Virus record (IMG/VR): IMGVR_UViG_3300029791_000002 | Span: 1 to 64,000 of that record | Source of the DNA: a virus | DNA length: 64,000 nt | Reading direction: 5' to 3' (one strand) | Part shown: piece after piece, positions 353 to 63,805 of the stretch | How the letters are laid out: each line of letters starts with the position of its first letter | Position numbering within the stretch: the stretch's first letter is position 1 | Translations under genes and position numbers: made by a program | The notes under the pieces: generated by a model | What the model was told of the DNA's origin: nothing | Database searches by the model: none | What the model saw: the letters and a program-made list of their open reading frames with translations, nothing else

Positions 353-2611
353 ATGGGTGTCAAATGTCAGATAGAAAAGAAGGAAAATAAAATAGAACGG
401 GTTGAGGCTCCTAACGGTGAGCCTTCCGTTCTTTACGAAAGTGCCTTAAAATTATTAGGAAATAGCGAACGAGCTCTTCAGGTATGGGCTAAGGCTTACA
501 CTCCTGGTTTTTTGTCGTATTACGGTCATTGGAACAACCCGGCTCCAGGGGAGATGTTTAATACCGATCCCAATGGCGAACCTCTTTTAGAAGACGTGCT
601 GTCGTATATGAAGCGTCAGACTTATTTTGCTGATCCTTTAACGGCTCAGGACATTAAGGATGTAAGGGATTTCCTTTTGTCTACTCATTATTTTTTCAAT
701 GCGTCTTCATTGTCTAATGCTATCCTCTTCGATTTTTATGTAGATGGCAGTTTGATACTGAATGAGCAGAAATTAAGGAGATCCGGTTTGTATGATGAAA
801 CAGAGATAAGTCGTATTTTATCCGATCCTTCTGTTTTAAACGAGGTTTTGACTTCCATGAGAAAGTTAATAGATTCTTCTATTAACGAACATGATAGGGA
901 AAAAGATAATTATTTTATGTCTATTGACTATCAGTATGGTCCTATTGTTTACAAGGAGGGAGTGTTTAACCAATTTGGTAAAAAGGTACCATATAATCCT
1001 TCTGAGCTTTATTATGCTATGCGTAAAACAGTAGCCGGCATAAAAAACTTTTCTGAATTTTCATCTGCTTTTGAATCGTTGAGAAATTCCTATCCTGAAC
1101 TGGTTGAGAAATTCGTTTCTGATAAAGAATTTGCCGAATCTATGTTTGATGAGTTCTCATCTACGAATAAGATTCCGGTAATAAACATAGAAGGGGATGA
1201 TGTGGTAGAAGGCAAGAGAAGATCCTTGTCTAAGTTACAAGATCTGTCTTATTACAATCCTGGCAAAATAGAGTTCCTAAGAGCTCGTATATCAGCTTAT
1301 TTACATAGGGCTAATGCCGACACCGAATCCGATTTAAGAAGCATGATATGGGATATAGAAGAGGCTTGTACGTGGTTTGGCATAGATATAATAGGGACAT
1401 CGGAAACTTATGATGGCACAGAAGAATCTTTGAATAAGATAGATAATTTGATGCTGGATCTTGATATTTATGTGGCCAGGCATAATGATGTAAATTATGC
1501 TCCAACGCTGGCATCTTCTATAGATGATGTTCTTGGTGATAGCACAGATTATTATTCTGAATTATTGCCGGAGTATATGGATAATTTGAATATCGTTTAT
1601 TCTGAATCCAATATAGACCCAGTAGAAGCGTTTGAGAAACATTCATTGCTTAAGGTAGGAGATAATCTATATCAAAGGATCAGCAAAGATGATATTAACG
1701 AGATGTATCAAATATCAACAGTGTTAGCCAAGGACAACCTAACTCATTTTTCTACTAAAATATATCCTGAATCTTGTTTTAAGAACGGCGTTTTGGATAA
1801 AGAGAAAGTACGGAACGTAGATAATAATACGCTCATGGCTTCCATTAAAAAACACGTCAGATCGTTCATGGATTCTCAGAACACGGAGGACATGATAATG
1901 ACCAGGATGGCGTTTGGACACCCGGCGGTACTTGACGTTCCTTACGTGGATGTGGATCGGGAGTATAGTCGATACATGAACAAAAAACAAGATAGCGAAA
2001 ACCCATTATCCTTATTCGATTTATACCAATCTTACCTTGACAACAAACTCCATAAAACAAAATTATATGATAATGCCTATAAGTATCTTGACTTCAAACC
2101 TGGTCCATCTTTGGGCCTTATTTCTGATGATCCTGATATTTTGAAATCAATAGAATTATCTTTATCTGGAAAAGACAGGTTGATGTTGTTTGATTATAGC
2201 ATGACCAGTACCGACCCTTCTTTATCAGAATTGTTTTATTTGGAGAGGTATGACCCTTCGTATGCTGGGAATGATTTTGAACACTATTTTTACACCAGGC
2301 ACCCGTATCTGTTAAAAGAAAAATCGGGCCCTAATATCGTAGAGCAAGATGGTGTTATAACAGCAGAAGGTATTTATGATAATTTTATAAGAGTAGGTAA
2401 TAAGATATGGTCTAAAGTAAGCGAGAGTAGTTCCGGCTCTATCTACCAAAATCTGACAGGAACCGAATCGGAGGTGAAATACGATTCTACTCAGAAGGCT
2501 AAGACGGTAGAAACTGATTACGCTCCATACCAAAACAGATCTGGCTTGACGCAAGATATGACCGTAAGCAAGTCTGAATTGGATGATCTTAACAAATTGG
2601 AATGCAGGTAA
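353..2611 (+). CDS. hypothetical 752-aa protein (possible virion/structural protein)
   Basis: Long uninterrupted ORF followed by a hairpin terminator at 2655-2685; no catalytic motifs recognised. Confidence 0.65.
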   Translation: MGVKCQIEKKENKIERVEAPNGEPSVLYESALKLLGNSERALQVWAKAYTPGFLSYYGHWNNPAPGEMFNTDPNGEPLLEDVLSYMKRQTYFADPLTAQDIKDVRDFLLSTHYFFNASSLSNAILFDFYVDGSLILNEQKLRRSGLYDETEISRILSDPSVLNEVLTSMRKLIDSSINEHDREKDNYFMSIDYQYGPIVYKEGVFNQFGKKVPYNPSELYYAMRKTVAGIKNFSEFSSAFESLRNSYPELVEKFVSDKEFAESMFDEFSSTNKIPVINIEGDDVVEGKRRSLSKLQDLSYYNPGKIEFLRARISAYLHRANADTESDLRSMIWDIEEACTWFGIDIIGTSETYDGTEESLNKIDNLMLDLDIYVARHNDVNYAPTLASSIDDVLGDSTDYYSELLPEYMDNLNIVYSESNIDPVEAFEKHSLLKVGDNLYQRISKDDINEMYQISTVLAKDNLTHFSTKIYPESCFKNGVLDKEKVRNVDNNTLMASIKKHVRSFMDSQNTEDMIMTRMAFGHPAVLDVPYVDVDREYSRYMNKKQDSENPLSLFDLYQSYLDNKLHKTKLYDNAYKYLDFKPGPSLGLISDDPDILKSIELSLSGKDRLMLFDYSMTSTDPSLSELFYLERYDPSYAGNDFEHYFYTRHPYLLKEKSGPNIVEQDGVITAEGIYDNFIRVGNKIWSKVSESSSGSIYQNLTGTESEVKYDSTQKAKTVETDYAPYQNRSGLTQDMTVSKSELDDLNKLECR

Positions 2612-3291: not shown

Positions 3292-4374
3292 TTGTTCCAC
3301 CCTGCAATCATGATCTTTGTTACGTGCTTCATGCACGTATGTTTAACAATTAAATACTATAAAATTATGGGTGGTGATAAAATCGTCCTTTTAGATGGAG
3401 CCGGGGCTAACGGTGGTGGTGCAGCCACTAACGGTCTTCTTTCAATGATTCCCGGCATGTTTGCTAATTTGATAGGTGGTAATAAAATGGATCCGAATCT
3501 GGTGGCGGCTTTGATGAACGGTCGTAACAACCAGGACGGTTTCGGTGGGGCTAACGGTTGGTGGCTCTGGATAATTGTTTTGTTCTGGCTGTGGGGTGGA
3601 CGCGGCTTCGGTAACGGTTTTGGAAATGGCGGTGATTGTTGCGCCAATGGTTTGCCGGCTCAGTTGAATAACGATTACGGTCGTGAACTTTTGATGCAGG
3701 CAATTCAAGGTAATCGTAGCGCCATAGATCAGATTGCTTCTGCTTTGAACTGTTCTACTACTCAACTTCAGAACGCTATCTGCAACGTACAGGGTGCTAT
3801 TGATAAAGTAGCTGGTCAGGTAGGTATGACTTCTCAGGCTGTTATCAACGCAGTTCAACAACAAGGTTGTGAAATAGGAAATCAAATCAGCTCTTGCTGC
3901 TGCAATCTGAGTTCGTTGATCAATCAAAGCACTTGCCAGACTCAGGGAATGATTACTCAGCAAGGTTTTGATAACCAGCTTCGCACGTTGGAACAAACCA
4001 ATATCTTGCAGAATGGTCTCAACCAAGGTCTGGCTAACAATCGTGAGCAAGCTACAAGCCAATTCAATATCTTGTCTGCGAAACTTGACGCCCAAACCGT
4101 TATGATCAACGACAAATTCTGTCAGTTGGAAATGAGGGAGATGCAGAACACTATTGCTCAACTTCGTGAAGAAAAAGCGGCTTTGACAGCTTCGGCATTA
4201 TCTCAGCAACAAACCCAGAATATCGTTGGTCAATTACGCCCGACGGCCGTCCCGGCCTACCCCTCTTGTTCTCCTTACCAGGCTTATACTTGGGGACAGG
4301 TATTCGGAGGAGGTTGCTGTAATAACGGATGCGGATGTAACAACGGATGTTGCAATAACAACGCTGCTGTCTGA
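3292..4374 (+). CDS. Gly/Asn/Gln/Cys-rich membrane-associated protein of unknown function (probable true start ATG 3367)
   Basis: GGxGNG-type glycine tracts, one Trp-rich TM segment (WWLWIIVLFWLWGG), Q/N-rich coiled-coil-like middle, C-terminal CCNNGCGCNNGCCNNN cysteine repeat. Confidence 0.55.
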   Translation: MFHPAIMIFVTCFMHVCLTIKYYKIMGGDKIVLLDGAGANGGGAATNGLLSMIPGMFANLIGGNKMDPNLVAALMNGRNNQDGFGGANGWWLWIIVLFWLWGGRGFGNGFGNGGDCCANGLPAQLNNDYGRELLMQAIQGNRSAIDQIASALNCSTTQLQNAICNVQGAIDKVAGQVGMTSQAVINAVQQQGCEIGNQISSCCCNLSSLINQSTCQTQGMITQQGFDNQLRTLEQTNILQNGLNQGLANNREQATSQFNILSAKLDAQTVMINDKFCQLEMREMQNTIAQLREEKAALTASALSQQQTQNIVGQLRPTAVPAYPSCSPYQAYTWGQVFGGGCCNNGCGCNNGCCNNNAAV

Positions 4375-4397
4375 TTTTATTAAGAAAGGAGGCTAAT

Positions 4398-4811
4398 ATG
4401 GCTTGTGTTTCTAAAATAGGATCGTTGTATGAGATGGTTACGAAGAATGTTATTGTCAGTACGACAAATACAGTCTTCGGTATTAACCCACGGGCTTGGA
4501 TCGCCCTTCCGTGTGAGGGTCTTATCCTTCTTAAGATAAGGCAAGTAGTCCCCACAGTCGGAAGTGCTCTACCGGTACAGATTGCGGTCCCGGCAAACAG
4601 CACAGTTTCAACAGTAGGAGCCGACACCTGTTGCCCGGTTACGGGAGTGAATGTCGTGAACCCTATTAACGTAGCTGTCACGGGTGCTGCTATGGTAAAT
4701 GGCACAGAACGCCTTCTGTACTTCAATAAAGTTCGTGGCGTGTTAAGATTAATGGATTGTTGTGTTCCAACAACAACAGCCCAGGCGTCTGAAGTTAAAG
4801 CAGGTAAATGA
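4398..4811 (+). CDS. hypothetical protein (137 aa)
   Basis: ORF preceded by a canonical AAGGAGG 7 nt upstream (4385-4391), unusual for this genome. Confidence 0.6.
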   Translation: MACVSKIGSLYEMVTKNVIVSTTNTVFGINPRAWIALPCEGLILLKIRQVVPTVGSALPVQIAVPANSTVSTVGADTCCPVTGVNVVNPINVAVTGAAMVNGTERLLYFNKVRGVLRLMDCCVPTTTAQASEVKAGK

Positions 4812-4861
4812 TTTCAGTAGGGTGATGGAGATCATCACCCTATTTTCACCTAACTAATATT

Positions 4862-5356
4862 TTGATCATGTTTTCAGATTTGAAGAAAGGGTTTCAGGTA
4901 CATACCCTTGATACTAATACAGTACCTAAATACGAATTGGGAAAGGTAGTAGCCGTATCCGAACCCAGGTATCTTCCTCCTCAGCCAGGTCAGTATCAGG
5001 CGATGCAGACCCGCGTGGTGGATCTGACGGTAGAGCTCACTGGCGAAACCAAGACCTACACGGTTCCGGAATCCCAGAATGTGGCTAAGGCTATGGGCAT
5101 AACATTATCTACCAGCATAGATCCGATTATGAACGAACTGAATGCCATAAAAAGCACCAGTCAGGAAATAATAGACAGCGTAGATGCCCATCGTGCCAAG
5201 ATAGAGGCTTGTGAATCTATATTAGAAGACATCAATCCGGCATTCAAACAAACGAGAGAGCAGGATCGTAAAATAGCTGGTATAGAAAATAAGGTGAATG
5301 ACCTTACTGATTCATTCGAAGATTTAAAGAAGTTAATTGTAGAACGTTTGAAATAA
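4862..5356 (+). CDS. hypothetical protein (164 aa, C-terminal coiled coil)
   Basis: ORF tiling in the + operon. Confidence 0.55.
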   Translation: MIMFSDLKKGFQVHTLDTNTVPKYELGKVVAVSEPRYLPPQPGQYQAMQTRVVDLTVELTGETKTYTVPESQNVAKAMGITLSTSIDPIMNELNAIKSTSQEIIDSVDAHRAKIEACESILEDINPAFKQTREQDRKIAGIENKVNDLTDSFEDLKKLIVERLK

Positions 5357-5363
5357 GTATAAT

Positions 5364-5732
5364 ATGATAGTATATGATTTAAATTCAGGACACAGAGAAT
5401 ATCCTGGATATGACGAGATAGAAGACAGACGAGGTGGAGGCAGAGGCAGAAGCCGCCGTTCTGATGGGACGTACATGGGGTACGGTGGTGGTATTTACGA
5501 CCATTACGGTATGCATGAGAAGATGAAGGAAATGGAAGAACGCGAAAACGAGCTGGAAGAAAGGGAAAGAAGGCTCGAAGAGCGCGAACGTCGTCATGAA
5601 ATGGAGGACCGGGAATACCGGAGGATGGGTTACGAATCCTACCCGATAGATTACTATGGAGACGACAGATACTACGGTGACGGGCCTCAGATGCGCAGAG
5701 GTCGCGGACGTGGCAGAGGTCGTTCTTATTGA
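5364..5732 (+). CDS. low-complexity RGG/Tyr- and Glu-Arg-rich protein (122 aa)
   Basis: RGGGRGRSRR and RRGRGRGRGRSY tracts flank an (E/R)-repeat helix ERENELEERERRLEERERRHE; many Tyr/Gly. Confidence 0.5.
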   Translation: MIVYDLNSGHREYPGYDEIEDRRGGGRGRSRRSDGTYMGYGGGIYDHYGMHEKMKEMEERENELEERERRLEERERRHEMEDREYRRMGYESYPIDYYGDDRYYGDGPQMRRGRGRGRGRSY

Positions 5733-5825
5733 GGAGCAGACGCAGAGGATCCAGCTTATCAGAAATATGTAGATACTTACGGCTACCATTTTTCTAATGC
5801 TCTCGCTGATGAGGCGGTAAAGAAG

Positions 5826-6119
5826 ATGGTCAACGTCGATGGATCCAAGAGGATCTGGAAGCAGCCGAAAATAAAAGATATTTTTGAAAAGTGCGGAGCG
5901 AAGAAGCCGGATAAAGCGACATGGGGCGATGTCCAATATGTCTTTGCAATGTACTATTCGGATGGTTTTCCGAAGGTCTTCAAATGTGAGAACGAGTTGG
6001 TGAAAGCTACGTTAATGTATTTGGATGATCCGGATGCTCCCGAAGGAGTAGCCTTTATAAGATGGCTTGCCGTGCAAGATTACCTCGGCGAAAAAATAAA
6101 CTGGAAGGATCTGACCTGA
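5826..6119 (+). CDS. hypothetical protein (97 aa)
   Basis: ORF in + operon. Confidence 0.45.
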   Translation: MVNVDGSKRIWKQPKIKDIFEKCGAKKPDKATWGDVQYVFAMYYSDGFPKVFKCENELVKATLMYLDDPDAPEGVAFIRWLAVQDYLGEKINWKDLT

Positions 6120-6282
6120 GATCCAGATCCAGGTCCTTCCGGTGGTGCGGGAGCCATAGTAAAAAATATGATTCCCGCATTCCCGTTTTTCCCGTTTGGA
6201 AAAAAAGAATAAAAATGTTATACCGGTCGGCGGGCAATAGAATACCCGTGGCCGGTTTGTTTCACATAACTTTTTTTTTGAC

Positions 6283-6459
6283 ATGAATATAGCACACGAA
6301 TCTAAATCGAATAAAACCCCATTGTATTTAATAGGAGAGTTGATTGGCGTACCGAATACGGTTATGGACTCAGCATTGCATGAACTGAAAGATAGAATAG
6401 ACAAAGACCCTAAATATAAAGATGTTAAAAATTGGCTCGAATCTTTACCCAAGATCTGA
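6283..6459 (+). CDS. small hypothetical protein (58 aa)
   Basis: Short ORF immediately before the terminator 6483-6517; below ORF-track cutoff. Confidence 0.2.
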   Translation: MNIAHESKSNKTPLYLIGELIGVPNTVMDSALHELKDRIDKDPKYKDVKNWLESLPKI

Positions 6460-6482
6460 ACCTATTTTTTTTCAATACCAGG

Positions 6483-6517
6483 CCCGATGCGATTTTAACG
6501 TATCGGGTTTTTATTTT
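6483..6517 (+). terminator. intrinsic terminator
   Basis: CCCGAT-13 nt loop-ATCGGG followed by TTTTTATTTT. Confidence 0.55.
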
Positions 6518-6587
6518 AATTCATATTGTTTTATTTTAAATCTAATTAATTCATAAATGTCGTACTTTTGTTGAAAAAGTATTTTTT

Positions 6588-6815
6588 ATGGAAAATAAGG
6601 AAGATTACGTTGGTTACGAAGATCAAGAACTGTGTAACCGGTATTACAAAGAGGCTGAAGCCATGAGGCAAAAGCAGGACTGGTCTCGGCTTAGGGCTGT
6701 CCCTGCTCCGGCCAAGGGAACGCCATCGCCCGGCTGGGGTCAGCTTGGACGTGGAAATGATGTCCGTGTTAAGTACGTTAGCATCAATTCAGGATTAGGA
6801 GGGGACAGATTATGA
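6588..6815 (+). CDS. hypothetical protein (75 aa)
   Basis: ORF; overlaps next ORF by ATGA. Confidence 0.35.
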   Translation: MENKEDYVGYEDQELCNRYYKEAEAMRQKQDWSRLRAVPAPAKGTPSPGWGQLGRGNDVRVKYVSINSGLGGDRL

Positions 6816-7027
6816 CTGTAGAAGAATTGGCTAATAAAAGATACAGTGGCGAATTTGTTTTCATGCTTGGTCATTTGGAAGGTATAACAAGATTCGTTTT
6901 TGAATGTTTTGATCCCAGACCTGATCACGAAGGTAAAAATACTTATATGGTTTCCTATTTTGATAAGGGACTTCGTAGAAGAGATGTGGTAGATGTGCCA
7001 TGTTATACGAATGTTTTAGCAAAATAA
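6812..7027 (+). CDS. hypothetical protein (71 aa)
   Basis: ORF translationally coupled (ATGA overlap). Confidence 0.4.
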   Translation: MTVEELANKRYSGEFVFMLGHLEGITRFVFECFDPRPDHEGKNTYMVSYFDKGLRRRDVVDVPCYTNVLAK

Positions 7028-7047
7028 ATTAAAATATTGTAAATATC

Positions 7048-7479
7048 GTGGTTAGAATCGCATATTTCGGAACCGATGGCCGTCCTGGTCATTACGCTAT
7101 TCCGATACGAGGTAAATTCACAGAAGAGGATATTAAGGTAATAGAATCTGTAGATTGTGATGATTTCTATAAGGTGTTTGACGTTATGCGTTTTAAGATA
7201 GCTGAGTTTAAAGGATGGACGATATTAGGAATCCCGGCAAGCTTAGACGATCATAGACCTGGAAGCAAAACCGTTATCTTCATAGAGGGTAAAGCTAACG
7301 AAACTGACTTTATGGAAGTTATACAAGAGTATTCTTTTCTTAAAAATAAGGTAAAGAAACTTGCCGAATTGTATCATGATGGAGAATGGCTTGCGACTGG
7401 TAAATTGAATCAAGATCCGCCTACTAACAAGGAGCGGTTTCAATTTACTATCTTTAACAAAGCCCCTGCTTTTAAGTAG
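7048..7479 (+). CDS. hypothetical protein (143 aa)
   Basis: ORF. Confidence 0.5.
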   Translation: MVRIAYFGTDGRPGHYAIPIRGKFTEEDIKVIESVDCDDFYKVFDVMRFKIAEFKGWTILGIPASLDDHRPGSKTVIFIEGKANETDFMEVIQEYSFLKNKVKKLAELYHDGEWLATGKLNQDPPTNKERFQFTIFNKAPAFK

Positions 7480-7580
7480 GAGATCAATGATTCTTTTATT
7501 CATATATGTATTCTTTAATAATTGATTCTGATATATGCCAAAAAGTTATTATTATATTTGTATTATAAATGTGGTTAAAA

Positions 7581-7938
7581 ATGATTTCATACAAATACAA
7601 CATCTATCATTCAAAGAAAACGAAGTATCTTGATAAGATGCTTCGCGAATGCTGTTTTGTATGGAATCATGCTTTAGCTCTACAACGTAGATATTACAAA
7701 CTGTTTGGGAAATACATCTAACGCTACCAAGATCCTCGTCAAGACCTTTAGAGGCAAGTTGTTCAAGAAAGCTTTTGGAAGAGCTCGTAGAGGAAAGGAT
7801 ATTAGTTCTTTTGAAAGACAGGAAAAAGAAAGTGGTTTCAATTTTCTACACAATCATAATAATGGTCGTATGCGAAGCGGTCATATTGTAATAAACGGAA
7901 TTGGTATGTTTAAACAAATAATGAAGTCGGGTACGTGA
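7581..7938 (+). pseudogene. tnpB: frameshifted remnant of a TnpB (IS200/IS605 OrfB) N-terminal region
   Basis: 46-aa ORF 7581-7721 MISYKYNIYHSKKTKYLDKMLRECCFVWNHALALQRRYYKLFGKYI matches the canonical TnpB N-terminus (YKYRIYP...G..RFVWNH.L). It continues in another frame (7705-7938) with TnpB-like segments (KLFKKAFGRARRGK, NGIGMFK ~ LPKLGWVK). No RuvC motifs follow. Confidence 0.55.
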
Positions 7939-8291
7939 GTTATCCGACTTTTTCGTATATTTGTGGCATGGCAAAAGGTTATTATTGGATACCACAAACA
8001 GATGAAACGTTAAATGGCATAAGCTATTACGTGACTAAGGTAGTAGGAGATATAGTGTTTGATACTAAACGAAAAAGAATAGTGTTTCAAACTACCAGGT
8101 ATTTCCCAGTAGGCTCCGTATTCCATTTTACTCACAACTGCTTTAAATACGTCATAACCTGCCGGCTCCGTAAGCCGGGGCTGTGGTATGAGGCAAGGAG
8201 GGAAGACTGCGGACCTATTGGACCGGATGATGTGGAAAGGTTCGAATCAGGAAGGTTTATTCATAGAAATGGGTACAAATATAATGCGTAA
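7935..8291 (+). CDS. hypothetical protein (118 aa), possibly a further degenerate part of the TnpB remnant
   Basis: ORF; weak resemblance only. Confidence 0.3.
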   Translation: MSYPTFSYICGMAKGYYWIPQTDETLNGISYYVTKVVGDIVFDTKRKRIVFQTTRYFPVGSVFHFTHNCFKYVITCRLRKPGLWYEARREDCGPIGPDDVERFESGRFIHRNGYKYNA

Positions 8292-8343
8292 GCGTAACTT
8301 GACGATTTACGTCAGATTATAATTATTTTTTCATATGTATATT

Positions 8344-8380
8344 AAGCCGTCAGACTGGGAAGTTAGACGGCTTTGTTTTT
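8344..8380 (+). terminator. intrinsic terminator
   Basis: AAGCCGTC-loop-GACGGCTT 8-bp stem followed by TGTTTTT. Confidence 0.5.
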
Positions 8381-8431
8381 ATCATGTGCCTGATTTTTAA
8401 TTACCTTTGTGTCAAAACAAAATAAATTCTT

Positions 8432-11400
8432 ATGGCGTCAACGTGTATTATTAAAAGAGATAATAAAAAGAAAGTTGTTTCTGTCTCTACCAGATCAGGG
8501 GACAGGTCTATGTTGTTTGATAAAATAGCATCTATTCCTCTTATGGAAAATAGGGAGCGGGCTACTACTGTTTTTAAAACCGTATTTTCTAATAAGTTCT
8601 TAAAGGCTTTTGGCGACTGGAGAAAGAGAGTGCCTATCAACAAACCGGCTTATAATAAGGTAAAATCCAACATCGATCTTATTCCGGAAGCCTATAGAGA
8701 AAGGGTGCTGGATAAGGCTTCTAAGATGAGTAATCCTGTTCTTGTGTCAAAATCAGATGCACCTTATGAAATCCGAGAATCGGGCTTTGGATTCTACAGC
8801 CAAGATCTGGGTGATAATATTATGTTGGTGGATGCTATGGTTCCGTCAAGTATTTCCGTACCGGAAGGACCTGGAATAGACGCCGGTCAGTATCTACAAG
8901 ATACTATATCTTCGGACTTCACCCCCGTATCTATGGTACAGGATAAGGGTGTTAATTATATGGTTATAAAAGACGGTCTTAAGATATTTAGCCCAGAAGA
9001 GTTACCACAGACAGATTCTAATCCTGTGGGTGTAACGTATCAGACCGGAGAGCCTCGTTTGTTTTTCATGAACGATCGTAATCAATTATTTGAAGATTAC
9101 GGAGAAGCTCTTCGCTCTGGCGGGAATGATATTAGAATAGGATTCTTGTCAGGCACCGTTCAAGAATCTGCCTGGGATGGCGTGGCAGACATTACTTACA
9201 AGGCTGGAAAGTATGTTCTTAATAATCCAAAATCTTTTATACCGGTCATGACCGCTTCTGCTTCCACTTCTTTATCAACAAAAGGTGGTATAATTAACTA
9301 CCTTATAAAGAAAGGTCTTTTGTCCGGATCTAAGATATTCGATCCTGAAACAAGAAGCTATTATCTTACAGGAGAAGGTCATACAGGACAAATTAGACTT
9401 TTCAATTCAGCCTTATCCTACACTGAGCTCCGTAATCATTTTGGTTCCGATGTTTCCATGAACGACCAAGGTATGATAACCATAAGCTCGTTGGATAACA
9501 GTAAGGTAACGATGAGACTCGCCACCGGAGGAACGGAAAGGGTTAGCAAAGAGCAGATAAAGAACGATCTTAAGTCAGGAAGATACAATGAATTGGACGC
9601 CAAGTACGATCATTTTGATGCGCTTGTAGTTTCATTCATATTAGAAGACAACGATCTTTATGCTGATACTAAAGCTAAGATCGTATCGGATTATAGCAGG
9701 CAGGAACGTGACCAACGAAATTCTATTGTCGAGATACTGAAAACTCTTGGCGTTAGTGTCATAGGTATGACCGACTATATAGAGAAGTACCAAACCAAAT
9801 ACGGGCATGAACCTTCTGCTAAGGCATTGGCGGATATTGCCAATAACGTAATAGCAGTTGGTGAAGATGCTACTTTATCCGATTTAGTAGAAGAAACAGC
9901 CCACTTCCTTGTAGAGGCATACAGAGATCAGAATGCTGTTGAGGCTGTTCTGCAAGATGTAGAAGGTACGGAAGAGTGGAACCAGTATGCAGGTCAGTAT
10001 TATAATACATACGGTAAGGTATATGAAGGATCTGAGCTTGATAATGCCGTTAGGAGAGAAATTCTTGGAAAGATCCTCGCCAGGGAGATGCAGACCGGCA
10101 CAGCGCAGGCGTCGGTAGAGCCCACCTCCTTCCTGGGGCGCGTCCGGCAGCTTCTCTCTGGAATCGTAAGCTGGCTTAAATCAGCTTTATCAACCCAAAG
10201 ACAAGATTTGAATAACGTTATTAAAAACATTCGTGATCTTGCCATTACTGACATAGATAAAGGATTTGACACCTCTCTGTTAAAGGATAATGACTTTACA
10301 TTATACTCCCTTTCTTCTATGAACAAGAACAAGTTTCTTGAGTCTAAGATCAGATCGCTAAGAAAAACATTAAGAGACTTACGTCAGATAAGCTCTGATA
10401 GGGCTGTAACTACGTCTATGACCCTTGCGCAGCTTAAGACCATAGAAGATAAGATAAATAAGGTAGAGACCGAAATAGACAAGAATGAGATGGCGGCTGC
10501 CATGAACAGCATGATCTCTACAGCCGAAGCTCAGGTCAGATACTTAAGCAATGTGGTGAACACCATCCTTCATGGTGATACCAAAGACGGCAAGCTTCAT
10601 TTCAATACCAATGATCGAAAGAACGTAGATATTATCAACAATCAGGTTCTTCCGATCATGAACGATCTTCGAGGATATATCCGTAACAGAAGTACCGAAT
10701 TTGATGAACGTGAAAAGCAGGATTATACAAATAGGATCAATACCGTCATTGCCGACATCAATGGTATTCAGTCTGATATTAAATCAGTACAAGACCTTGA
10801 TGAAAGCACGTTGCTTGATAAGTTAATGAACGAACTTCATGTGCCGGCAGATAAGGTAAAGAGAGTAAAAGAATTTTTCGACAAGGTTCAACACGATGTT
10901 TCTTGGATAAGTAGGTGGTTTGGTATATTAGAGCATTCTTCCAGTCCGTTCAATAACGCTCTTGGAGCTATGATTGCCAAAGACAATTACAATGCGATGG
11001 TGAATGCCCAGCCCGCCATATCCGATTTCCTGGCATATGCGAAAAAGCATGGTTTTAACAAATCTGAATTTGAAAAACTGCTTCAGAAAGTAGATGGCAA
11101 AACTTCTAATTACCTTCGTAGTGCTCTTGATATGGCTAAATACGATCGTAATAAGAAGCTGGCGCAGATGCGAGCGTTTGCGACTGCCATGAACATAGAG
11201 ATATCAGAAGAAGAAATTGGTGATGTGGTTGACAATAACCGTAATTACGTATTTAAAAGAGAAGTAGTTGACAAGGATGGAAATACGGTTACTGAAAACG
11301 CTAAATTCAAACCATCGTCTGATAGAGTTAATACCGATATTTTTACCATCGAGCAGGAAAAGATCTATACAGAGCAGATGGAAAAGTGGGATGCTGAAAA

Positions 11401-15792: not shown

Positions 15793-15799
15793 GTTATTT

Positions 15800-16734: not shown

Positions 16735-16741
16735 CCTTATA

Positions 16742-17932
16742 TCACAAAATATTTATTCTAACCGGATTAAACACAAATCCACTATCGATTATCTTTCCAA
16801 TGAAAGAATCACCGACTACTTTTCTTGCTATTCCTATAGCTCCATTAATATCAGCATTAATTAGCTTTCCAACGGAACTTTGGAATAATCCACGTTTCTT
16901 TCTTTTCCCTAAATAGGATTCTTGTTTCTTTAGAGGTTCAAAAGCAAGATGGTCAATCTTTGATGTGTAAGATTCCTCATGAGTAATTACCTCTATCCCT
17001 AAAAGATTTGCTTTGTAAACAATCTTATCAATCAATTTAGAATGAGGAATAGAAACAAAATGTTGGTTATTCCTTTTACCGATATTTATCTCGTTTTTCC
17101 ATTCTTTGTTTAATCCAATGATGATTGTTCCTATATTGTTAGATTTACAAAAGTCTACAATGTATCTACTGATTTTATGCAATTTGTCTTCTATCCAACA
17201 ATTTCTAAACAAAGTAATTTTTCTTATTCTATTTGAAGTTCCCTTATTACCAACAAAAGACATCAACTTAGCTTTCTTCTTATTGTACCACTGATTTACT
17301 GATTTCATAACCCGTCCGTTTATAATGAAAGAATTAGTTTCTACATTACTAATACATGAACATAAATTATTCAATCCTAAATCAATCGAAAGAAAATTGT
17401 CTTTGTTTAAACCAAGATCAGTTTCCTTTCTTTCATAAACTACCTCTACTACATAACATGTAGCTTGAGGGATTATTCTAACTTGTTTTAGTTCGTCTTT
17501 CTTTACATTTGTTTTGATAGGTTTGATTATATCTTTAACAAAATAAATACAATTATCACCCTTTACCCTACAATTGCAGTTGGTGAAAACAACCATGTTT
17601 TGTTTCTTACCTTGTTTGTATGATGGAAGGTGAGGTCTATGATTTCCGTATTTAGAAGGATTCTTTTCAAAATCCTTCTTGAGTTTTATCCAGGATTTTA
17701 TGTTTTTAAATACCTGTTTAATCACCTGTTGGGATACATGATTAGGTAAATTCCTGAAATCGAATTGGTTTTCTTTGCAAAGTTTGTTTGATAAATCAAA
17801 TTCCTTTAAATAGTTACCTGAAAAGATTCCTTGACGAATGTTGTAAAGAACATAATTATATAACAAGCCGGATTTGAAGCAAATATCCTCAAACCGGTTG
17901 TCTTTAACTATATGCCTTTCAACTAATCTCAT
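16742..17932 (-). CDS. tnpB: TnpB-family RuvC-like nuclease (IS200/IS605 OrfB / OMEGA effector), zinc-finger-less
   Basis: Collinear with ISDra2 TnpB. RuvC-I SIDLGLNN and RuvC-II LLGIEVITHEE are present, then ESYTSK (YTSQ motif) and RuvC-III NADINGAIGIARK. The expected CxxC...CxxC zinc finger between RuvC-II and RuvC-III is replaced by a Lys-rich Cys-less segment. Confidence 0.85.
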   Translation of the reverse strand: MRLVERHIVKDNRFEDICFKSGLLYNYVLYNIRQGIFSGNYLKEFDLSNKLCKENQFDFRNLPNHVSQQVIKQVFKNIKSWIKLKKDFEKNPSKYGNHRPHLPSYKQGKKQNMVVFTNCNCRVKGDNCIYFVKDIIKPIKTNVKKDELKQVRIIPQATCYVVEVVYERKETDLGLNKDNFLSIDLGLNNLCSCISNVETNSFIINGRVMKSVNQWYNKKKAKLMSFVGNKGTSNRIRKITLFRNCWIEDKLHKISRYIVDFCKSNNIGTIIIGLNKEWKNEINIGKRNNQHFVSIPHSKLIDKIVYKANLLGIEVITHEESYTSKIDHLAFEPLKKQESYLGKRKKRGLFQSSVGKLINADINGAIGIARKVVGDSFIGKIIDSGFVFNPVRINIL

Positions 17933-17985
17933 TTGAATGATTTATATCGTAAATGTAATCGTTATTTGTAAAATAATCAAATTAT

Positions 17986-20507: not shown

Positions 20508-20572
20508 AAATATGTATCGTATTATACCTATACAAATATACTGTGTTAAATTTTATTATTGTATTTTTTATA

Positions 20573-24764: not shown

Positions 24765-26465
24765 TTATTTTTTGTCATCTCCCTTTAACTTCTTTAAAGT
24801 ATCTGCAATCGGAAGCTGATCAATGACTCCCAATGCCGGAGCGACGGTCTTGACAACATTGTTAAGGAAATTACCGGTACTGTTCTGACCGCCGTCAAAT
24901 ACCGTGATATTTCCGAGGTTAATGTGCTCAAATGCCTTAACCTGTTCTCCGGCAATTTCTTTCCACTGATTAACCATCTTGTACTGGATGGCGATCTGAG
25001 GATTGGATTCTGCTGCTTCCACCATAGCCTTAAATCCGTCGGCTTCTGCCATCAACGATTTTTTCTTACCTTCGGCTTCTGCCTCCAGCTTCATCTGAAT
25101 AGCTTTTGCCTCCGCCTCAGCTTTTGCCAAATGTGCTGCTGCCTCTGCCTCAGCCCGGCGTTTGATCTTCTCTGCCTCAGCATCAGCTTGTAATATAGCC
25201 TCTTCCTTCTGGGTTTCAGCCGGCACAATCTTTTCAGCCTTAAGCGCAGCCTGAACTTTCTTAGCCTTAGCTTCTTCCACTTCTTTGTCGGCAAGCTCTT
25301 TTGCTGTTTTTACAGCCGCTTCCGATTTAACTTTTTCTTCTCCGGCCTTCTTCTCTGATTGAGCTTTGATGATCTGTAGTTCTGATACTGACACAGCAAC
25401 CTCCTTCTGGGCATTGTTGTATCCTATAGACGCATTTTTCTCAGCCTCAGCCTTCTTAATCTGAGCTTCAGAGTCTTGTATTGCTATAGCTGCTTCCTTG
25501 TCAGCTTCAGCCTTATTCTTTCCGACTTCTTCCATCCTTTCAGCCTCGGCTTTATTTACTTCAAGTTCTGCCTTAGATCTTACAATCGCCGATTCCTTGT
25601 CGGTTAAAGTTTTTGCGATAACCGCAGCCCTGTCTCTATCTGCTTGAGCTACGCCGATCTGTTTTTCTTTATCGGTTAAAGCCAAGGCTATTTCTTTTTC
25701 TTTCTTCGTTTCAGCTACTATCGTTTCCTTTTCTTTTTCAGTACAAGCAATTTGAATCTCTTGCTCTTTTTTGGTATTAGCCACAGCCGTTTCTTTCTCC
25801 TTCTGCTGTACAGCAATCTTAATAGCACCCAGCTTCTCCTGTTCTTCGATATTAGCCTGTGCCTCGTTCAGAGCCCTACTTTCAGCCTCCTTACCAAGGT
25901 TCATAATATAACCAGCTTCGTCTCTGATGTCACTGATGTTGATGTTCAGGAGGTAAAGACCTAACTTGTTAAGCTCGTTGTCAATGTTCTTTCTTGCCTT
26001 ATCCAAAAACTCATCCCTGTCAGAATTAAGTTTTTCGATTGTCATTTCAGCAATAATCAAACGCATCTGACCGTAAACAATGTCCGTAATAAGATTTTCA
26101 GTAGATTCGGTATCCATCTCCAAAAGTCTTTCTGCCGCATTTTGCATGATTTCGGGATTTGTACTGATAGCTACTGTAATGGTCGTAGGTACATCTACTC
26201 TAATATTCTGAGATGATAAAGCACCGGTAAGCTTGCAATCTATTTGCATAGGCTCCATTGACAAAACATCATAGCTTTGAATAATAGGCAAGACAAATGC
26301 CGCTCCACCATGATATAATTTCGCCGATTTCTTTTCCCCACCTGTCTTACCATAAACGACCAAGACCTGATTAGGCTTACATCTACGATACCTTGATAAG
26401 ACTCCGATGATTGTCAAAATAATCACTACAGCTAAGATAGCTGACACGTACATGATTGTTGTCAT
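24765..26465 (-). CDS. flotillin-like SPFH/Band-7 membrane protein
   Basis: N-terminal TM helix, SPFH core (VLVVYGKTGG...HGGAAFVLPIIQSYDVLSMEPMQIDCKL) and a long KEKE/EA-rich repeat coiled coil (KEKETAVANTKKEQEI x several). Confidence 0.85.
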   Translation of the reverse strand: MTTIMYVSAILAVVIILTIIGVLSRYRRCKPNQVLVVYGKTGGEKKSAKLYHGGAAFVLPIIQSYDVLSMEPMQIDCKLTGALSSQNIRVDVPTTITVAISTNPEIMQNAAERLLEMDTESTENLITDIVYGQMRLIIAEMTIEKLNSDRDEFLDKARKNIDNELNKLGLYLLNINISDIRDEAGYIMNLGKEAESRALNEAQANIEEQEKLGAIKIAVQQKEKETAVANTKKEQEIQIACTEKEKETIVAETKKEKEIALALTDKEKQIGVAQADRDRAAVIAKTLTDKESAIVRSKAELEVNKAEAERMEEVGKNKAEADKEAAIAIQDSEAQIKKAEAEKNASIGYNNAQKEVAVSVSELQIIKAQSEKKAGEEKVKSEAAVKTAKELADKEVEEAKAKKVQAALKAEKIVPAETQKEEAILQADAEAEKIKRRAEAEAAAHLAKAEAEAKAIQMKLEAEAEGKKKSLMAEADGFKAMVEAAESNPQIAIQYKMVNQWKEIAGEQVKAFEHINLGNITVFDGGQNSTGNFLNNVVKTVAPALGVIDQLPIADTLKKLKGDDKK

Positions 26466-52905: not shown

Positions 52906-53153
52906 ATGCATTGTATGTAGTATTTATCTTTTTGCCTACTGACAAAAATCTTTTTTAAAATCATCTGTTTTCTGATATGGACTCTTTTCCCGTCATCTAA
53001 TTCCCTCCATATTTCATTAAAGATCAAATTTATTAATTCCATGACCTTCTTATCAGAGACAAGATTCTTCCTACCGGGGCTGACCCATCCATCATCAGTC
53101 ATCTTACCGGCTATCCTATTAGCTATCCTGCTTAATTCACGTGGGGTGCTCAT
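52884..53153 (-). CDS. hypothetical protein (89 aa)
   Basis: ORF. Confidence 0.45.
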   Translation of the reverse strand: MSTPRELSRIANRIAGKMTDDGWVSPGRKNLVSDKKVMELINLIFNEIWRELDDGKRVHIRKQMILKKIFVSRQKDKYYIQCIEKRDAK

Positions 53154-53842
53154 TTTAATTTGTTTTTAAATATTCTACCTTTTTCACACTGAAGTATGCA
53201 GTCTCTCATGGGATGATCTTGTTCGTGATCGTCACACATCGGAAATTCTTTTCCATAGGGGAAAGCAATGTGCGGGCACTGCGCCCTGAACGCATCCCAG
53301 GCCGACTTCCTCACAGCCTCAGCTCCGGCACGCACGCCTTTCTCTCTTTCCTTGGCTGGGTCAGCATACACGTTTGAAATAGCTCTTTTCTTCCAAGTAA
53401 GCATATTGTAGTAAAACTTATCCACCAGTTTCCTACCCACTACATCAAACTTCTGTCTATGAATTAAAGGTGCTACCTTAACGACGTTCTTCCTATTTTT
53501 ACTAACATCGACATAAATCAGCCCGGCATAAGAAGGGACTTCACTTACGTCAATCATATTAGGCGGACAGGCGTAGTAGAAATAGTTTGGAGGATAGCTT
53601 ATGACACCACCTACCTTAATAATGCCGTCTTTAAGAACCTTATGTTTTTTATCCTTTTTGAAGTCGTTAAAGAAATCTTGTTTAGACATCTTGACCTCTA
53701 CTTCATAAGCGTACAATGATCTTGTTATGGCCAGGAAGTCAGATTCCCAATCATATATATGAAGATTGTTAATAACATACATCGGATTACTTAACAGATC
53801 CCTATTAAGGATCTTAAGCATTTGTTGCTCTGGGTAGTTCAT
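53150..53842 (-). CDS. hypothetical protein (230 aa)
   Basis: ORF. Confidence 0.55.
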   Translation of the reverse strand: MNYPEQQMLKILNRDLLSNPMYVINNLHIYDWESDFLAITRSLYAYEVEVKMSKQDFFNDFKKDKKHKVLKDGIIKVGGVISYPPNYFYYACPPNMIDVSEVPSYAGLIYVDVSKNRKNVVKVAPLIHRQKFDVVGRKLVDKFYYNMLTWKKRAISNVYADPAKEREKGVRAGAEAVRKSAWDAFRAQCPHIAFPYGKEFPMCDDHEQDHPMRDCILQCEKGRIFKNKLK

Positions 53843-61321: not shown

Positions 61322-63805
61322 TTATAAATTAAACTCTGCAAAATCTATTTCAGATCCGGTTGACAAATTAATCATTGACTTTTCAAGCTCTTCCATTGGA
61401 ACCGGTTTCACAATACCTCCATTACCAAGAGTCCTTTTATAGAAGTTTATCACCACCTGATCGCTGGTTTTTACCGTCTTAGGAATAGGTTGACGAAGAT
61501 ATAATCCATCAAGAGACTTTACTCTTGAAAGAGCCGTATATAGCTGTCCTGTTTCAAAAGAATTAGATACGTCCATCATAGCCGCATCCAATGTCAGGCC
61601 TTGGGCTTTATGGATCGTGATAGAATAACCTATTTTTATAGGATACTGAATAATAGCTCCTACTACTTCAGATTCTATCTTATATCCGTTTCTTACGTAT
61701 TTTACTTTCTCAAACGAACATGGTGTTATAACAACCTTAGTATGCTCATCATCTTTCGGTTTATCAAGGACTACTTCAATCTCACCCTTTTTTATAGATA
61801 ATACAGTACCAAGAGAGCCATTGAAGTACTCTCCTCCGTTTCTTGTTATCATAACTCTTGATCCTTCTTTCAAGAAAAGAGTTTTTTCAACCGGAGCATC
61901 TTTAGGATAATCACCGTTTATAACAGCTTCTAATTTTCTTAAAGAGCCTGGTAACGATGATATTCTCATTTCGTTAATAGCCGTAGCTTTTGAGTTGGTA
62001 GTTACAATCTCAACATATCCTTGATTATTATCAGACTGAATACATCTGCTGTTTATTGTATCAAATACATCATCATCCATCTGCCCTTCACGCACCTTAT
62101 TAAGGACACTAATAAACTTCTCATCTTTCTGACGGTATATTTTTTCAAAAGAAACCATTTCCATACCAGAAGCCATTAGAGACTTGGAGCTAAAGAAGTA
62201 AGATGTATCGTATATTTCTCTAAAAAAATCCTCCTTAATTACTGGCGGAAGTTGAAATAAATCACCTACCATAATAAGTTTCACGCCGCCAAACGGGTCC
62301 TTGTCTCCTCTTGCATGACGAAGTATATCAGCTACGTTGTCAAGAAGATCAGGGCGAACCATAGAAATCTCGTCTATGATAAGATACTTTATATTCTGTA
62401 AAATCTTTTCCGAACCTCCGTTGAATTTATATTCGCAGTTATCCATAAACGCGCCTTTTCGTATTTCAGGTATATACGGCTGCATTCCTATTCTAAAAAA
62501 TGAATGAATGGTTTGACCACCTGCATTAACAGCAGCAACACCTGTAGGAGCTACAACAACCGCATTTTTTAATGCCGGTATAATACGCTTAAGGAAAGTA
62601 GTATTATGAGTTACAATATAATTATCTGTTATATACAACTCGTCTTTATTTGATACTTTTATACATACGCATTCAGAATCATCTACCTTTTCCACGCTTT
62701 CTATATACCTTGAAACTCTTGCCGGATTAGGAACATATCTTTCTTTTTTTCTTTTTAATGTAAATACATTATCGTACATTTTTATTCTTACGGTATATTC
62801 ATACACGTATTTCTTATCAGGTCTAAAAAGCGTATTTATCTTAGCTATTCCACCTAACGACTGTACAAGATCAACAATGTCTTCAGCCAATCTCTTGCTT
62901 GTAGTAGAATACGTCAATCTATTTCTTTCTTTCGAGCATGTTCCATCGGTGTCCATTAAACCATTTAACAAATGCATTCTCTGATCGATACTGCCAAGTT
63001 TATATTCTTCTGGTATAAATTTATACCCAGACGTAACATTTAGTCCTAAATCCTTTATCCTATTTATAAACCCACCACCTTTTGTATGATTTTTTTGAAT
63101 CACACTGTATTGAGGACATGTGATGGCTGGATGTTCCTTTTTTTTACTCAATAGAAAATCTTCTCCAAGAAATGACTCTACTCTATTTCTTATTTCTACA
63201 TCAGAATCAGAACAAGAAAAAATAGCCATATTACCATTTAAACTCCCATCACCTATAAGAACTCCCAATACATACGGATGTATAGAAAATTTCTTTTCTT
63301 CATATTCTATAGGTCGGCACACTGGAATTTCATATCTTAACGGCTGTTTTTCACCATTTTTTATTTTAACATTCTTCCTGATACCTGTACTTATAATTTC
63401 TTTTAGTGTACTGCATCTCGAAAATGGAGTTTTACCATAATGACTGGATAATCTATATGACCACAAATGCTCTTCATCGCAATATGTAAAATAACCATCA
63501 TTCATAGTTACCTTATATACAGGTCTAATTCCCTGTGGATACACACCCAATACAGTCTGTTGTTTACCATCTGCGCCCATAACTTTATCACCAACCTTTA
63601 TATCCCCCATATTCTTAAAACCATCTGGCGTTAAAATTTTAGCATACAAAGGCTGTGCTTTTCCACTTCCTCCTTTACCGGTTATAAACAGCGGTTTTGG
63701 TGACTTACAAATAGACTTAATAGCCTTTCCCTGGGCGACATTACCTTCGGACATAACTGAACGAAGAACGCACTCCATGATTTTTTTGTCGTAACTTATA
63801 GCCAT
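61322..63805 (-). CDS. Pif1/RecD-like SF1 helicase interrupted by an intein
   Basis: Extein reads ITGKGGSGK|...|TTFLKRIIPALKNAVVVAPTGVAAVNAGGQTIHSF, then LIIDEISMV (Walker B) and MVGDLFQLPPV, all Pif1/RecD motifs. A 352-aa insertion splits the Walker A. Confidence 0.9.
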   Translation of the reverse strand: MAISYDKKIMECVLRSVMSEGNVAQGKAIKSICKSPKPLFITGKGGSGKAQPLYAKILTPDGFKNMGDIKVGDKVMGADGKQQTVLGVYPQGIRPVYKVTMNDGYFTYCDEEHLWSYRLSSHYGKTPFSRCSTLKEIISTGIRKNVKIKNGEKQPLRYEIPVCRPIEYEEKKFSIHPYVLGVLIGDGSLNGNMAIFSCSDSDVEIRNRVESFLGEDFLLSKKKEHPAITCPQYSVIQKNHTKGGGFINRIKDLGLNVTSGYKFIPEEYKLGSIDQRMHLLNGLMDTDGTCSKERNRLTYSTTSKRLAEDIVDLVQSLGGIAKINTLFRPDKKYVYEYTVRIKMYDNVFTLKRKKERYVPNPARVSRYIESVEKVDDSECVCIKVSNKDELYITDNYIVTHNTTFLKRIIPALKNAVVVAPTGVAAVNAGGQTIHSFFRIGMQPYIPEIRKGAFMDNCEYKFNGGSEKILQNIKYLIIDEISMVRPDLLDNVADILRHARGDKDPFGGVKLIMVGDLFQLPPVIKEDFFREIYDTSYFFSSKSLMASGMEMVSFEKIYRQKDEKFISVLNKVREGQMDDDVFDTINSRCIQSDNNQGYVEIVTTNSKATAINEMRISSLPGSLRKLEAVINGDYPKDAPVEKTLFLKEGSRVMITRNGGEYFNGSLGTVLSIKKGEIEVVLDKPKDDEHTKVVITPCSFEKVKYVRNGYKIESEVVGAIIQYPIKIGYSITIHKAQGLTLDAAMMDVSNSFETGQLYTALSRVKSLDGLYLRQPIPKTVKTSDQVVINFYKRTLGNGGIVKPVPMEELEKSMINLSTGSEIDFAEFNL
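62603..63658 (-). mobile_element. intein (residues 50-401) with double-motif LAGLIDADG homing endonuclease, inserted in the helicase P-loop
   Basis: Hint N-block AQPLYAKILTPDGFKNMGDIKVGDKV; LAGLIDADG motifs YVLGVLIGDGS and LLNGLMDTDGT; C-terminal IVTHN followed by +1 Thr. Removal restores GKGGSGKTT. Residue 1 is Ala, not Cys/Ser. Confidence 0.8.

Follow-up and report, generated by a model that had tools for sequence, protein, structure and literature searches.

Upstream of a giant gene encoding 2140 aa, a short ORF resembling the N-terminus of TnpB raises the question of how much of the surrounding DNA derives from an IS200/IS605 transposon, and whether the giant gene is affected by it. The preliminary description of this stretch of 64,000 nucleotides of viral DNA (the window) had placed a decayed, frameshifted TnpB copy at 7581-8291, in the 5' leader of the giant gene, with leftover right-end or omegaRNA hairpins at 8344-8380 acting as a terminator or attenuator.

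The plus-strand ORF at 7581..7721 encodes 46 aa (MISYKYNIYHSKKTKYLDKMLRECCFVWNHALALQRRYYKLFGKYI), starting with MISYKYNIYH, followed by FVWNHALAL and ending in GKYI. It belongs to the HTH_OrfB_IS605 domain family in Pfam (23.8 bits, E 3e-5; gathering cut-off 21) and matched PHROG 506 'transposase' with an E-value of 3.6e-6. Compared with residues 1-46 of the 360-aa TnpB of Parabacteroides phage PF672P2, its identity was 67% (E 2e-18), and residues 1-46 of an intact 379-aa TnpB in two sibling contigs, L033 and L056, were the same at 45 of 46 positions. Judged by these matches, the ORF is a genuine TnpB N-terminus and no low-complexity coincidence, and the presence of a second TnpB copy is borne out by Pfam, PHROG 506 and the sibling identity. 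The intact TnpB of the window (396 aa, 16742..17932, minus strand) contains the OrfB_IS605 and Cas12f1-like_TNB domains and had no HTH_OrfB_IS605 match in Pfam, in agreement with the earlier remark that the stub is closer to the canonical N-terminus than the intact copy is. The stub family and the 396-aa TnpB share 22.8% identity over 246 aa (E 0.01) and, at this level, seem essentially unrelated. Using Pfam, blastn and tblastn, neither the RuvC-like nuclease domain OrfB_IS605 nor the zinc-finger domain TNB was found in the window copy, and the lack of a RuvC motif after the stub is thereby confirmed; in the intact sibling TnpB, OrfB_IS605 and Cas12f1-like_TNB scored 67.0 and 66.9 bits, respectively. 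Since the nuclease and zinc-finger domains are absent, the feature is to be classed as an IS200/IS605 remnant and no functional member.

The ancestral intact element, which had been recommended as a comparison, was located in related phages. Intact 379-aa TnpB genes were present in L033 and L056, with a third copy at the contig end in L082. Because the 132 bp ahead of the ATG in the window differ from the left end in L033, IMG/VR was searched for the left-end (LE) hairpin motif of the window with both variable positions degenerate, and 12 contigs were obtained, the flanks of the mappable copies being shared with the window and those contigs having 85-98% identity to it. A full tnpB follows the left end in L086, L087, L089 and L093; the copies in L091, L092 and L094 are ended by contig borders, those in L088 and L095 are frameshifted, L090 is a mini-copy with an internal deletion, and L085 and L096 continue differently. 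From filled and empty sites, the element ends were determined as TTTAC followed by TATCTTTAAC ... GGGAGTATGTCAA and then the flank, with a length of 1,289 bp, the right end reading ...CCCATTTGCTTTAGCGATGGGAGTATGTCAA before the flank. At one filled site (L087, L091, L093) TTTTAC is followed by the element and then by TACAATATGCTCAC..., and in L088 and L095 the sequence TTTTAC-TACAATATGCTTAC is unbroken and the element lies 14 bp further on; the corresponding site in the window is empty (53371-53433). Target duplication was absent when filled and empty sites were compared. By this alignment of sites, the element is 1,289 bp long, inserts 3' of TTAC, ends in TCAA and generates no target duplication.

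The stub at 7449-7717 aligned without gaps to nucleotides 1-269 of the element in L093 (blastn, 97.8% identity; 97-98% across the intact sibling copies), and the portion kept in the window corresponds to the first 270 bases of the 1,289-bp element, no other piece of which was found by blastn within the 64-kb window. With 6 substitutions in 269 nt and a clean truncation at 7718/7719, the copy is not the frameshifted and decayed gene that had been described, and the feature extends over 7449-7718 instead of 7581-8291. The copy in L033 and L056, located 235 bp upstream of the homologue of 7719, was also considered as the orthologous ancestor and rejected, as its left end is both shorter and of a different sequence, it lacks a TTAC junction, and the left junction of the window lies 2.2 kb further left.

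At the left border, homology in all 80 related loci, which were collected from IMG/VR with the 143-aa ORF at 7048..7479 as the probe, breaks off at 7447/7448. This plus-strand ORF is a phage gene truncated by the insertion, encoding 143 aa here compared with 209-211 aa in relatives. Its sequence is native up to 7448 (...ERFQFT), and the left end of the element supplies IFNKAPAFK and the stop codon TAG at 7477-7479, which is itself made by a C>T substitution at 7477; the counterpart in relatives runs on ...FQFTLDKDDIINMIRG... to about 209-211 aa. In tblastn comparison with relatives, residues 1-135 alone aligned. The tetranucleotide TTAC (7445..7448, plus strand; TTTAC at 7444-7448) stands directly 5' of the left end, and 12 of 12 other IMG/VR copies of the left end, in eight different flanks, are likewise preceded by TTAC, mostly TTTAC. 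TTAC is the target of IS608 (PMC13565253). With TTTAC joined directly to the left end at 7448/7449, as expected for insertion 3' of TTAC without duplication, this position is identified by its sequence as a true transposition junction.

The left end itself (7449..7488, plus strand), which falls within the stretch aligned to L093, has its subterminal hairpin at positions 7463-7482. The sequence here is CCCCTGCTTTTAAGCAGGGG in intact copies and ...AAGTAGGAG in the window. The 8-bp stem is abolished in the window by C>T at 7477 and G>A at 7481, so that the hairpin no longer forms; in L093 it folds with -15.5 kcal/mol, and 12 of 12 other copies have it intact. Among the 270 nt, no other position distinguishes the window from every one of the nine comparable copies.

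Next to the left end lies a relic of a transposase gene. On the minus strand, 13 codons of the 3' end of tnpA (HISESIIKEYIYE) were recognised at 7499..7537, with the stop at 7496-7498, by comparison with L083/L085 and the human-faecal scaffold MT839900; the minus-strand ORF of the window at 7496..7603 terminates in ...HISESIIKEYIYE. In L083 and L085, the same left end runs into the C-terminus of an opposite-strand Y1 transposase at the contig end, and this fragment is 69% identical to residues 99-130 of the TnpA of MT839900. MT839900 carries a complete 132-aa tnpA at 757..359, divergent from and upstream of a tnpB at 826 that is 73-78% identical to tnpB of the stub family; its TnpA showed 43% identity to what we take to be the TnpA sequence of IS608. 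Neither of these two TnpA sequences gave a tblastn match to a Y1 (HUH) TnpA in the 64-kb window, where the 13-codon relic is all that remains. The relic, together with L083/L085 and MT839900, indicates that the 1,289-bp form arose by loss of tnpA from an element with IS605 organisation, and autonomous, tnpA-bearing versions are present in the same phage clade. Between the relic and the ATG, the segment 7540..7580 (plus strand) comprises the presumed tnpB promoter region and 5' UTR, with a -7 box TAnnTTTG (TATATTTG) at 7553-7560. TAnnTTTG is a known Bacteroides promoter consensus, a -7 box of the Bacteroidota type; the box ahead of the tnpB ATG is kept in 11 of 13 listed copies and is predicted to be the tnpB promoter.

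The right border is a deletion junction at 7718..7720. The element reaches C7718, T7719 is shared, and phage DNA starts from A7720, in agreement with the blastn boundaries. Element alleles read ...AAATATATCT followed by CAGTTGG at this point (in a longer reading, ...GGGAAATA(C/T)AT(C/A)T followed by CAGTTGG), the native phage reads ...GCCGGCAAT followed by AACGCTACC, and the window reads ...AAATACATCTAACGCTACC (longer, ...GGGAAATACATCTAACGCTACC). Microhomology between the two parents is limited to 1 nt, T7719, and microhomology-mediated slippage was rejected as the cause of the deletion for this reason. The stub of tnpB on the plus strand, identified by Pfam, PHROG 506 and L033, consists of codons 1-46 (7581-7718), and the TAA ending the ORF (7719-7721) was created by the join with phage DNA.

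In place of the 270 bp of the window, relatives have 1.1-3.4 kb, typically about 2.17 kb. The nearest relative, L077, is 99% identical over 7719-9498, and its interval contains the 3' third of the 211-aa gene, genes encoding 241, 65, 101 and 117 aa, and 34 codons of a 106-aa gene. The 241-aa gene encodes a WDGH domain (PF25311, 124.9 bits) and a Tad2-like domain (PF11195, 49.2 bits). The four lost accessory genes are retained by 65-76 of 81 related loci, and paralogues of the lost genes were not found in the 64-kb window. The ancestral content of the deleted segment was taken from relatives, in which this variable region measures about 1.1-3.4 kb.

The right end of the element was examined with a model of its structure. 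The last approximately 115 nt of the element have a conserved multi-helix fold, and double changes have preserved 14 base pairs across a 220-nt right-end alignment, which is what an omegaRNA scaffold and a right-end hairpin would be expected to show. An Rfam search of the locus of the intact copy found no curated omegaRNA family, and a covariance model (CM R1) was therefore built de novo from nine copies. CM R1 gave 49-92 bits for independent copies with 56% TnpB identity, the copies of PF672P2 and MT835597 falling within this range, and 44 bits for the shortened copy in L090. In the 64-kb window, searched with filters off, the maximum was 12.9 bits (E 0.11); the hairpin at 8344-8380 scored 11.7 bits (E 0.24), among some thirty equally weak matches. 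By CM R1 and blastn, no right end or omegaRNA of the element was found in the window. The stub is regarded as inert because it lacks the RuvC and zinc-finger domains, the right end and the omegaRNA, and its left-end hairpin is broken; it would be able neither to move nor to cut.

Taken together, 7449-7718 is very probably the dead 5' stub of a 1,289-bp, IS608-like, tnpB-only IS200/IS605 element, left by an insertion and a later deletion. The element would have transposed into the 211-aa gene at TTTAC, with the transposase supplied in trans; this supply is proposed because tnpA-bearing versions of the element occur in the phage clade. Next, illegitimate recombination would have deleted about 3.2 kb in one event, taking away approximately 1,020 bp of the element and approximately 2,180 bp of phage DNA, namely the 3' third of the 211-aa gene, the 241-, 65-, 101- and 117-aa genes and 34 codons of the 106-aa gene. 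At most, a short transcript covering the 46-codon ORF and the gene remnant behind it may start from the box of the stub and end at a hairpin at 7926-7951, and the downstream 118-aa and 2140-aa genes would retain promoter boxes of their own as well as the native terminator. As no contig carrying the full element at the 7448 site was found, either in IMG/VR or among the JGI metagenome contigs, the order of insertion before deletion is one that we infer. Whatever the order, the transposon remnant is genuine, ordinary and precisely delimited at 7449-7718.

The state of the stub might also suggest that it has been kept for a function, as a promoter for downstream genes, as a source of a 46-aa peptide acting against the TnpB/omegaRNA of competitors, or as a disarmed solo left end. 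Neither the promoter box nor the 46-codon ORF is damaged, the ORF being free of changes unique to the window, and both window-unique substitutions fall in the 3' arm of the LE hairpin, the chance of two random changes falling in two 8-nt arms being estimated at roughly (16/270)^2, or about 0.4%. However, with two unique substitutions in all, a recent deletion explains the intact ORF equally well; the truncated gene owes its TAG stop to one of these substitutions, which leaves room for other explanations; a similar retained stub was found in no second phage; and a terminator-like hairpin (7926-7951) stands between the stub and the next gene, the downstream genes having TAnnTTTG boxes of their own. 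Exaptation is thus considered improbable.

An assembly error, in which either the join at 7718/7719 or the whole insert at 7449-7718 was produced by mis-joining through a multi-copy element, was considered as well. The element is repeated and polymorphic in the clade, and the contig L082 breaks inside it. The deletion junction had 0 matches in IMG/VR, and the left junction had 6 chance matches in unrelated context in JGI metagenomes; neither junction recurs in any other contig of the two collections, so the configuration rests on one assembly. Mis-joins form at shared repeats, whereas the parents share 1 nt here; the 64-kb window has no second copy of the element with which to recombine in silico; both flanks are ordered and oriented as in the relatives; and the left junction is a perfect TTAC site followed by the left end. 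An artefact is rated as even more improbable than exaptation.

The DNA beyond 7718 was compared with that of relatives. The window is approximately 96% identical at the nucleotide level to the phage csAssE-Sib (OR575929.1, 151 kb, human gut), for which no paper was found in a literature search, and is collinear with it at 4894-7038, 7719-7922 and 7921-12920. Homology to relatives restarts exactly at 7719 in most of them and at 7743-7940 in a few. The plus-strand segment 7720..7938 is a 5'-truncated remnant of the 106-aa phage gene (codons 35-106 and the stop; homologue WOZ57319.1 in csAssE-Sib), its product having 100% amino acid identity to residues 35-106 of the ORF in L077, and the region is found in most relatives. 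A hairpin and T-run at 7926..7951 (plus strand; -16.7 kcal/mol, z -4.4) are shared with relatives and predicted to be the native terminator of this gene. A conserved 118-aa phage gene, which does not belong to the element, occupies 7935..8291 (plus strand; homologue WOZ57321.1; identical ORF in L077) and starts with GTG at 7935 or, more likely, with ATG at 7970 behind a TAnnTTTG box at 7956. Substitutions in this gene among relatives were distributed as 402/305/1341 over codon positions 1/2/3, indicating that it is a real gene under purifying selection. The 118-aa ORF had no Pfam or PHROG match, and neither it nor the 77-aa ORF at 7705..7938 had a Pfam match at E<=10.

Residues 47-379 of TnpB, searched by tblastn against 7719-8431, scored no higher than 17.3 bits, and 40 shuffles averaged the same (17.3 +/- 1.4). 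With full-length TnpBs from GenBank phages, only residues 1-46 aligned within 7300-8500 and the rest stayed at noise level, and with the TnpBs of two intact relatives and of the window itself no TnpB similarity was detected past 7718. The supposed continuation of TnpB in another frame therefore does not hold, since Pfam returned nothing, tblastn remained at the level of shuffled sequence and the DNA from 7719 on is native to the phage.

The hairpin at 8344..8380 (plus strand) was examined in the same manner. It consists of GCCGTC-AGACTGGGAAGTTA-GACGGC and a T-run, lies 53 nt past the stop of the 118-aa ORF and folds with -16.8 kcal/mol (z -2.5). It is kept in 79 relatives, almost all without the element at this place, and its stem shows a compensatory change from G:C to A:T (GCCGTC/GACGGC compared with GCCATC/GATGGC) as well as a wobble variant, GGTGGC. 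A consensus terminator scan called neither hairpin, the inner bulge of 8344-8380 exceeding the loop limit of the scanner, and the terminators were therefore assessed by folding and covariation. With its G+C-rich stem, T-run, position after a gene and covariation, the hairpin has the properties of an intrinsic terminator and is, by fold and conservation, the predicted native terminator of the 118-aa gene. Its origin as a right-end or omegaRNA remnant was ruled out by the noise-level CM R1 score and the conservation in element-free relatives.

Plus-strand TAnnTTTG boxes occur in 7000-8500 only at 7553, 7956 and 8402, standing 14-30 nt ahead of the ATGs at 7581, 7970 and 8432. The giant 2140-aa gene thus seems to be served by a promoter of its own, located past the terminator at 8344-8380, and the stub does not lie in its 5' leader as first described, because a terminated gene remnant, the 118-aa gene, its terminator and the box at 8402 intervene. 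The reading of 7581-8291 as a decayed, frameshifted TnpB pseudogene with right-end or omegaRNA hairpins at 8344-8380 regulating the giant gene from its leader, though correct in that the 46-aa N-terminus is real and that a stable hairpin with a T-run is present, is hardly tenable, since 7719-9500 is native phage DNA in all relatives, most of them free of the element here, 7720-7938 matches a phage ORF completely over residues 35-106, 7935-8291 is a conserved coding gene, the remainder of TnpB is matched at shuffle level, the omegaRNA model gives only noise despite good sensitivity, and the hairpin covaries in relatives.

IS200/IS605 elements are widespread in relatives of the window. In window coordinates, the 1,289-bp element or its remnants were found next to 6156, at 28096, near 39645 and near 43841, at 53410/53409 and 53397/53396, and at one unmapped site, and the mini-copy lies between 15578 and 18419, where the window has the 396-aa TnpB. 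Counting the site in the window, at least nine insertion sites are known, with eight or more other TTAC sites in siblings; csAssE-Sib has a copy of 75% identity at 58969-60130. Some of the sites are inside genes, and adjacent deletions are frequent. Deletions beside or within copies include 14 bp in L089, 199 bp replaced in L033/L056, and internal and 3' deletions in L090; the event of about 3.2 kb in the window is the largest of this recurrent kind. Other TnpB types were also present in the 12-kb loci of relatives, including the 396-aa family at 89% identity, a type sharing 44% identity with the 396-aa TnpB, a 40%-identical copy and a 380-aa type 32% identical to the family of the stub. The earlier estimate of at least two IS200/IS605 invasions is correct and understated, as the stub family and the 396-aa family are joined by three more diverged TnpB types. 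Among bacterial genome contigs, with one genome per species, close relatives (>60% aa identity) were not found, and the best match in this search, which was sensitive to close relatives only, was a TnpB of 56% identity from a MAG of Candidatus Cryptobacteroides.

A wider reading, which we offer tentatively and consider unlikely on present data, is that the stub is one footprint of a phage-living insertion sequence actively reshaping a clade of human-gut phages of about 150 kb. If TnpB/omegaRNA is a weapon or homing device between co-infecting siblings, insertions and deletions would drive the turnover of accessory and anti-defence genes, such as the lost WDGH/Tad2-like gene, and the two substitutions that destroy the hairpin might result from selection for disarming a solo left end still open to nicking by TnpA.

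For annotation, the label of an IS200/IS605 remnant applies to 7449-7718 only, and the upstream region of the giant gene is native and unchanged. The stub is also the marker of about 2.2 kb lost in a strain-specific manner: four accessory genes are gone, one of them encoding a Thoeris-anti-defence-2-like domain, and two more genes are truncated. The polymorphism of the element across the clade is a more interesting by-product than the remnant itself. A mobile IS608-like element is documented with base-pair-exact borders as polymorphic in large gut phages of the Bacteroidota type, providing a usable data set on the spread of TnpB elements in virulent-phage populations.

The closest deposited relatives are the TnpB of PF672P2 (WAX17138.1) and those of the human-faecal scaffolds MT839900 and MT835597, whose N-termini are 67-80% identical to the stub and whose full TnpBs share 56-78% identity with the intact 379-aa TnpB of the siblings. 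Unlike the stub, these are full-length genes, in which the RuvC D-E-D and CxxC...CxxC motifs are present, and they have left ends that differ or have diverged further.

The element also resembles known members of the family. Its right end finishes in TCAA, as in IS608 of Helicobacter pylori, for which TCAA is the right cleavage site. It further shares with IS608 insertion 3' of TTAC without target duplication, subterminal hairpins instead of terminal inverted repeats, and a TnpB (OrfB_IS605 and zinc-finger TNB) that overlaps, at its 3' end, with a structured right end resembling an omegaRNA; the target and hairpin features of the IS608 type are summarised in PMC13565253. It differs from IS608 in that the common phage form lacks tnpA except for a 13-codon relic, in that tnpA and tnpB, co-oriented in IS608, are divergent in the tnpA-bearing phage versions, as in IS605, and in that the element is housed in gut phage genomes of about 150 kb, the copy in the window comprising nucleotides 1-270 only. 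The IS1341 type consists of tnpB-only members of the IS200/IS605 family (PMC13565253), and the 1,289-bp element is similar to it in encoding TnpB alone and relying on TnpA in trans. In contrast to that type, the derivation of the phage element from a tnpA/tnpB element is still visible in the relic and in the tnpA-bearing siblings of the clade, and the copy in the window has lost even the catalytic part of TnpB.

In the 270-nt stub of the 1,289-bp tnpB-only element (window 7449-7718), a comparison of copies showed that positions 7477 and 7481 were the only ones unlike all nine comparable copies. Both changes hit the left-end hairpin in its 3' arm and abolish it, and the C>T change at 7477 also gives the truncated 143-aa ORF its TAG stop. 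Chance, relaxed constraint or selection against a solo site for TnpA nicking could account for the two changes.

The 1,289-bp element was also found at another site, which is empty in the window (53371-53433, minus strand) and lies inside an ORF (53150..53842) encoding 230 aa in the window. The empty target reads GGAAACTGGTGGATAAGTTTTAC-14 nt-TTGGAAG..., and it is filled by the element in the related IMG/VR loci L087, L091 and L093. In L088 and L095 the element is placed 14 bp beyond the site used in those three loci, and in L089 the element is present and the 14 bp are deleted.

The window interval 15579-18418 (2.8 kb), which holds the intact 396-aa TnpB of a separate family (16742..17932, minus strand), is occupied instead in the relative L090 by a mini-remnant of the 1,289-bp element, in which the left end is joined directly to the tnpB 3' end and the sequence is cut off short of the right end. 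In sibling phages, one and the same spot has thus hosted two different TnpB elements. L038, L059 and L071 also carry the 396-aa TnpB family (89% aa), there in the variable region lying upstream of the giant gene.

An intact 379-aa TnpB of the stub family was found in the IMG/VR relatives L033 (8129-9367) and L056. The left end of this copy is different and shorter and has a compensated hairpin (CCACC...GGTGG). No TTAC precedes the copy, which stands in place of 199 bp from the 5' portion of a 117-aa gene. These features suggest that the copy is a chimeric element, or that it came by recombination and not by clean transposition. A further 380-aa TnpB (MHKAFKYRIYPNK...), 32% identical to the stub family, was observed in L032, L035, L078, L080 and L081 at ~4190-5245; its insertion point is flanked by the homologues of window positions 6563 and 6587, and the site is empty in the window.

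Within the segment missing between window 7448 and 7719, the nearest relative L077 encodes a 241-aa protein (6809-7534) with WDGH and Thoeris-anti-defence-2-like (Tad2/DUF2829) domains. The gene was present in 74 of the 81 related loci, and no paralogue of the protein was found in the window. The interval that separates the 211-aa gene from the 106-aa gene ranges in length from 1.1 to 3.4 kb across relatives and so behaves as an accessory or anti-defence hotspot would. Most relatives carry a ~175-bp segment with a 56-aa ORF (L001 4205-4378; WOZ57320.1 in the related phage csAssE-Sib) that lies between the 106-aa gene and the 118-aa gene; this segment is missing from the window (join 7922/7921), L077, L028 and a few other relatives.

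Elsewhere in the window, an 827-aa PIF1/RecD-like helicase (61322..63805, minus strand) showed Hint, LAGLIDADG and Hom_end matches (residues ~62-341), suggesting that its gene holds an intein with a homing endonuclease. A 566-aa protein (24765..26465, minus strand) has SPFH/Band 7 and flotillin domains, which is unusual phage cargo.

Outside these loci, Parabacteroides phage PF672P1 (OP172819.1) showed a solo match at 20503-20615, where no gene is annotated, to the last ~120 nt of the element (right end/omegaRNA region), and this match, in a Parabacteroides phage that has been isolated, may represent an orphan omegaRNA or a remnant of the right end.
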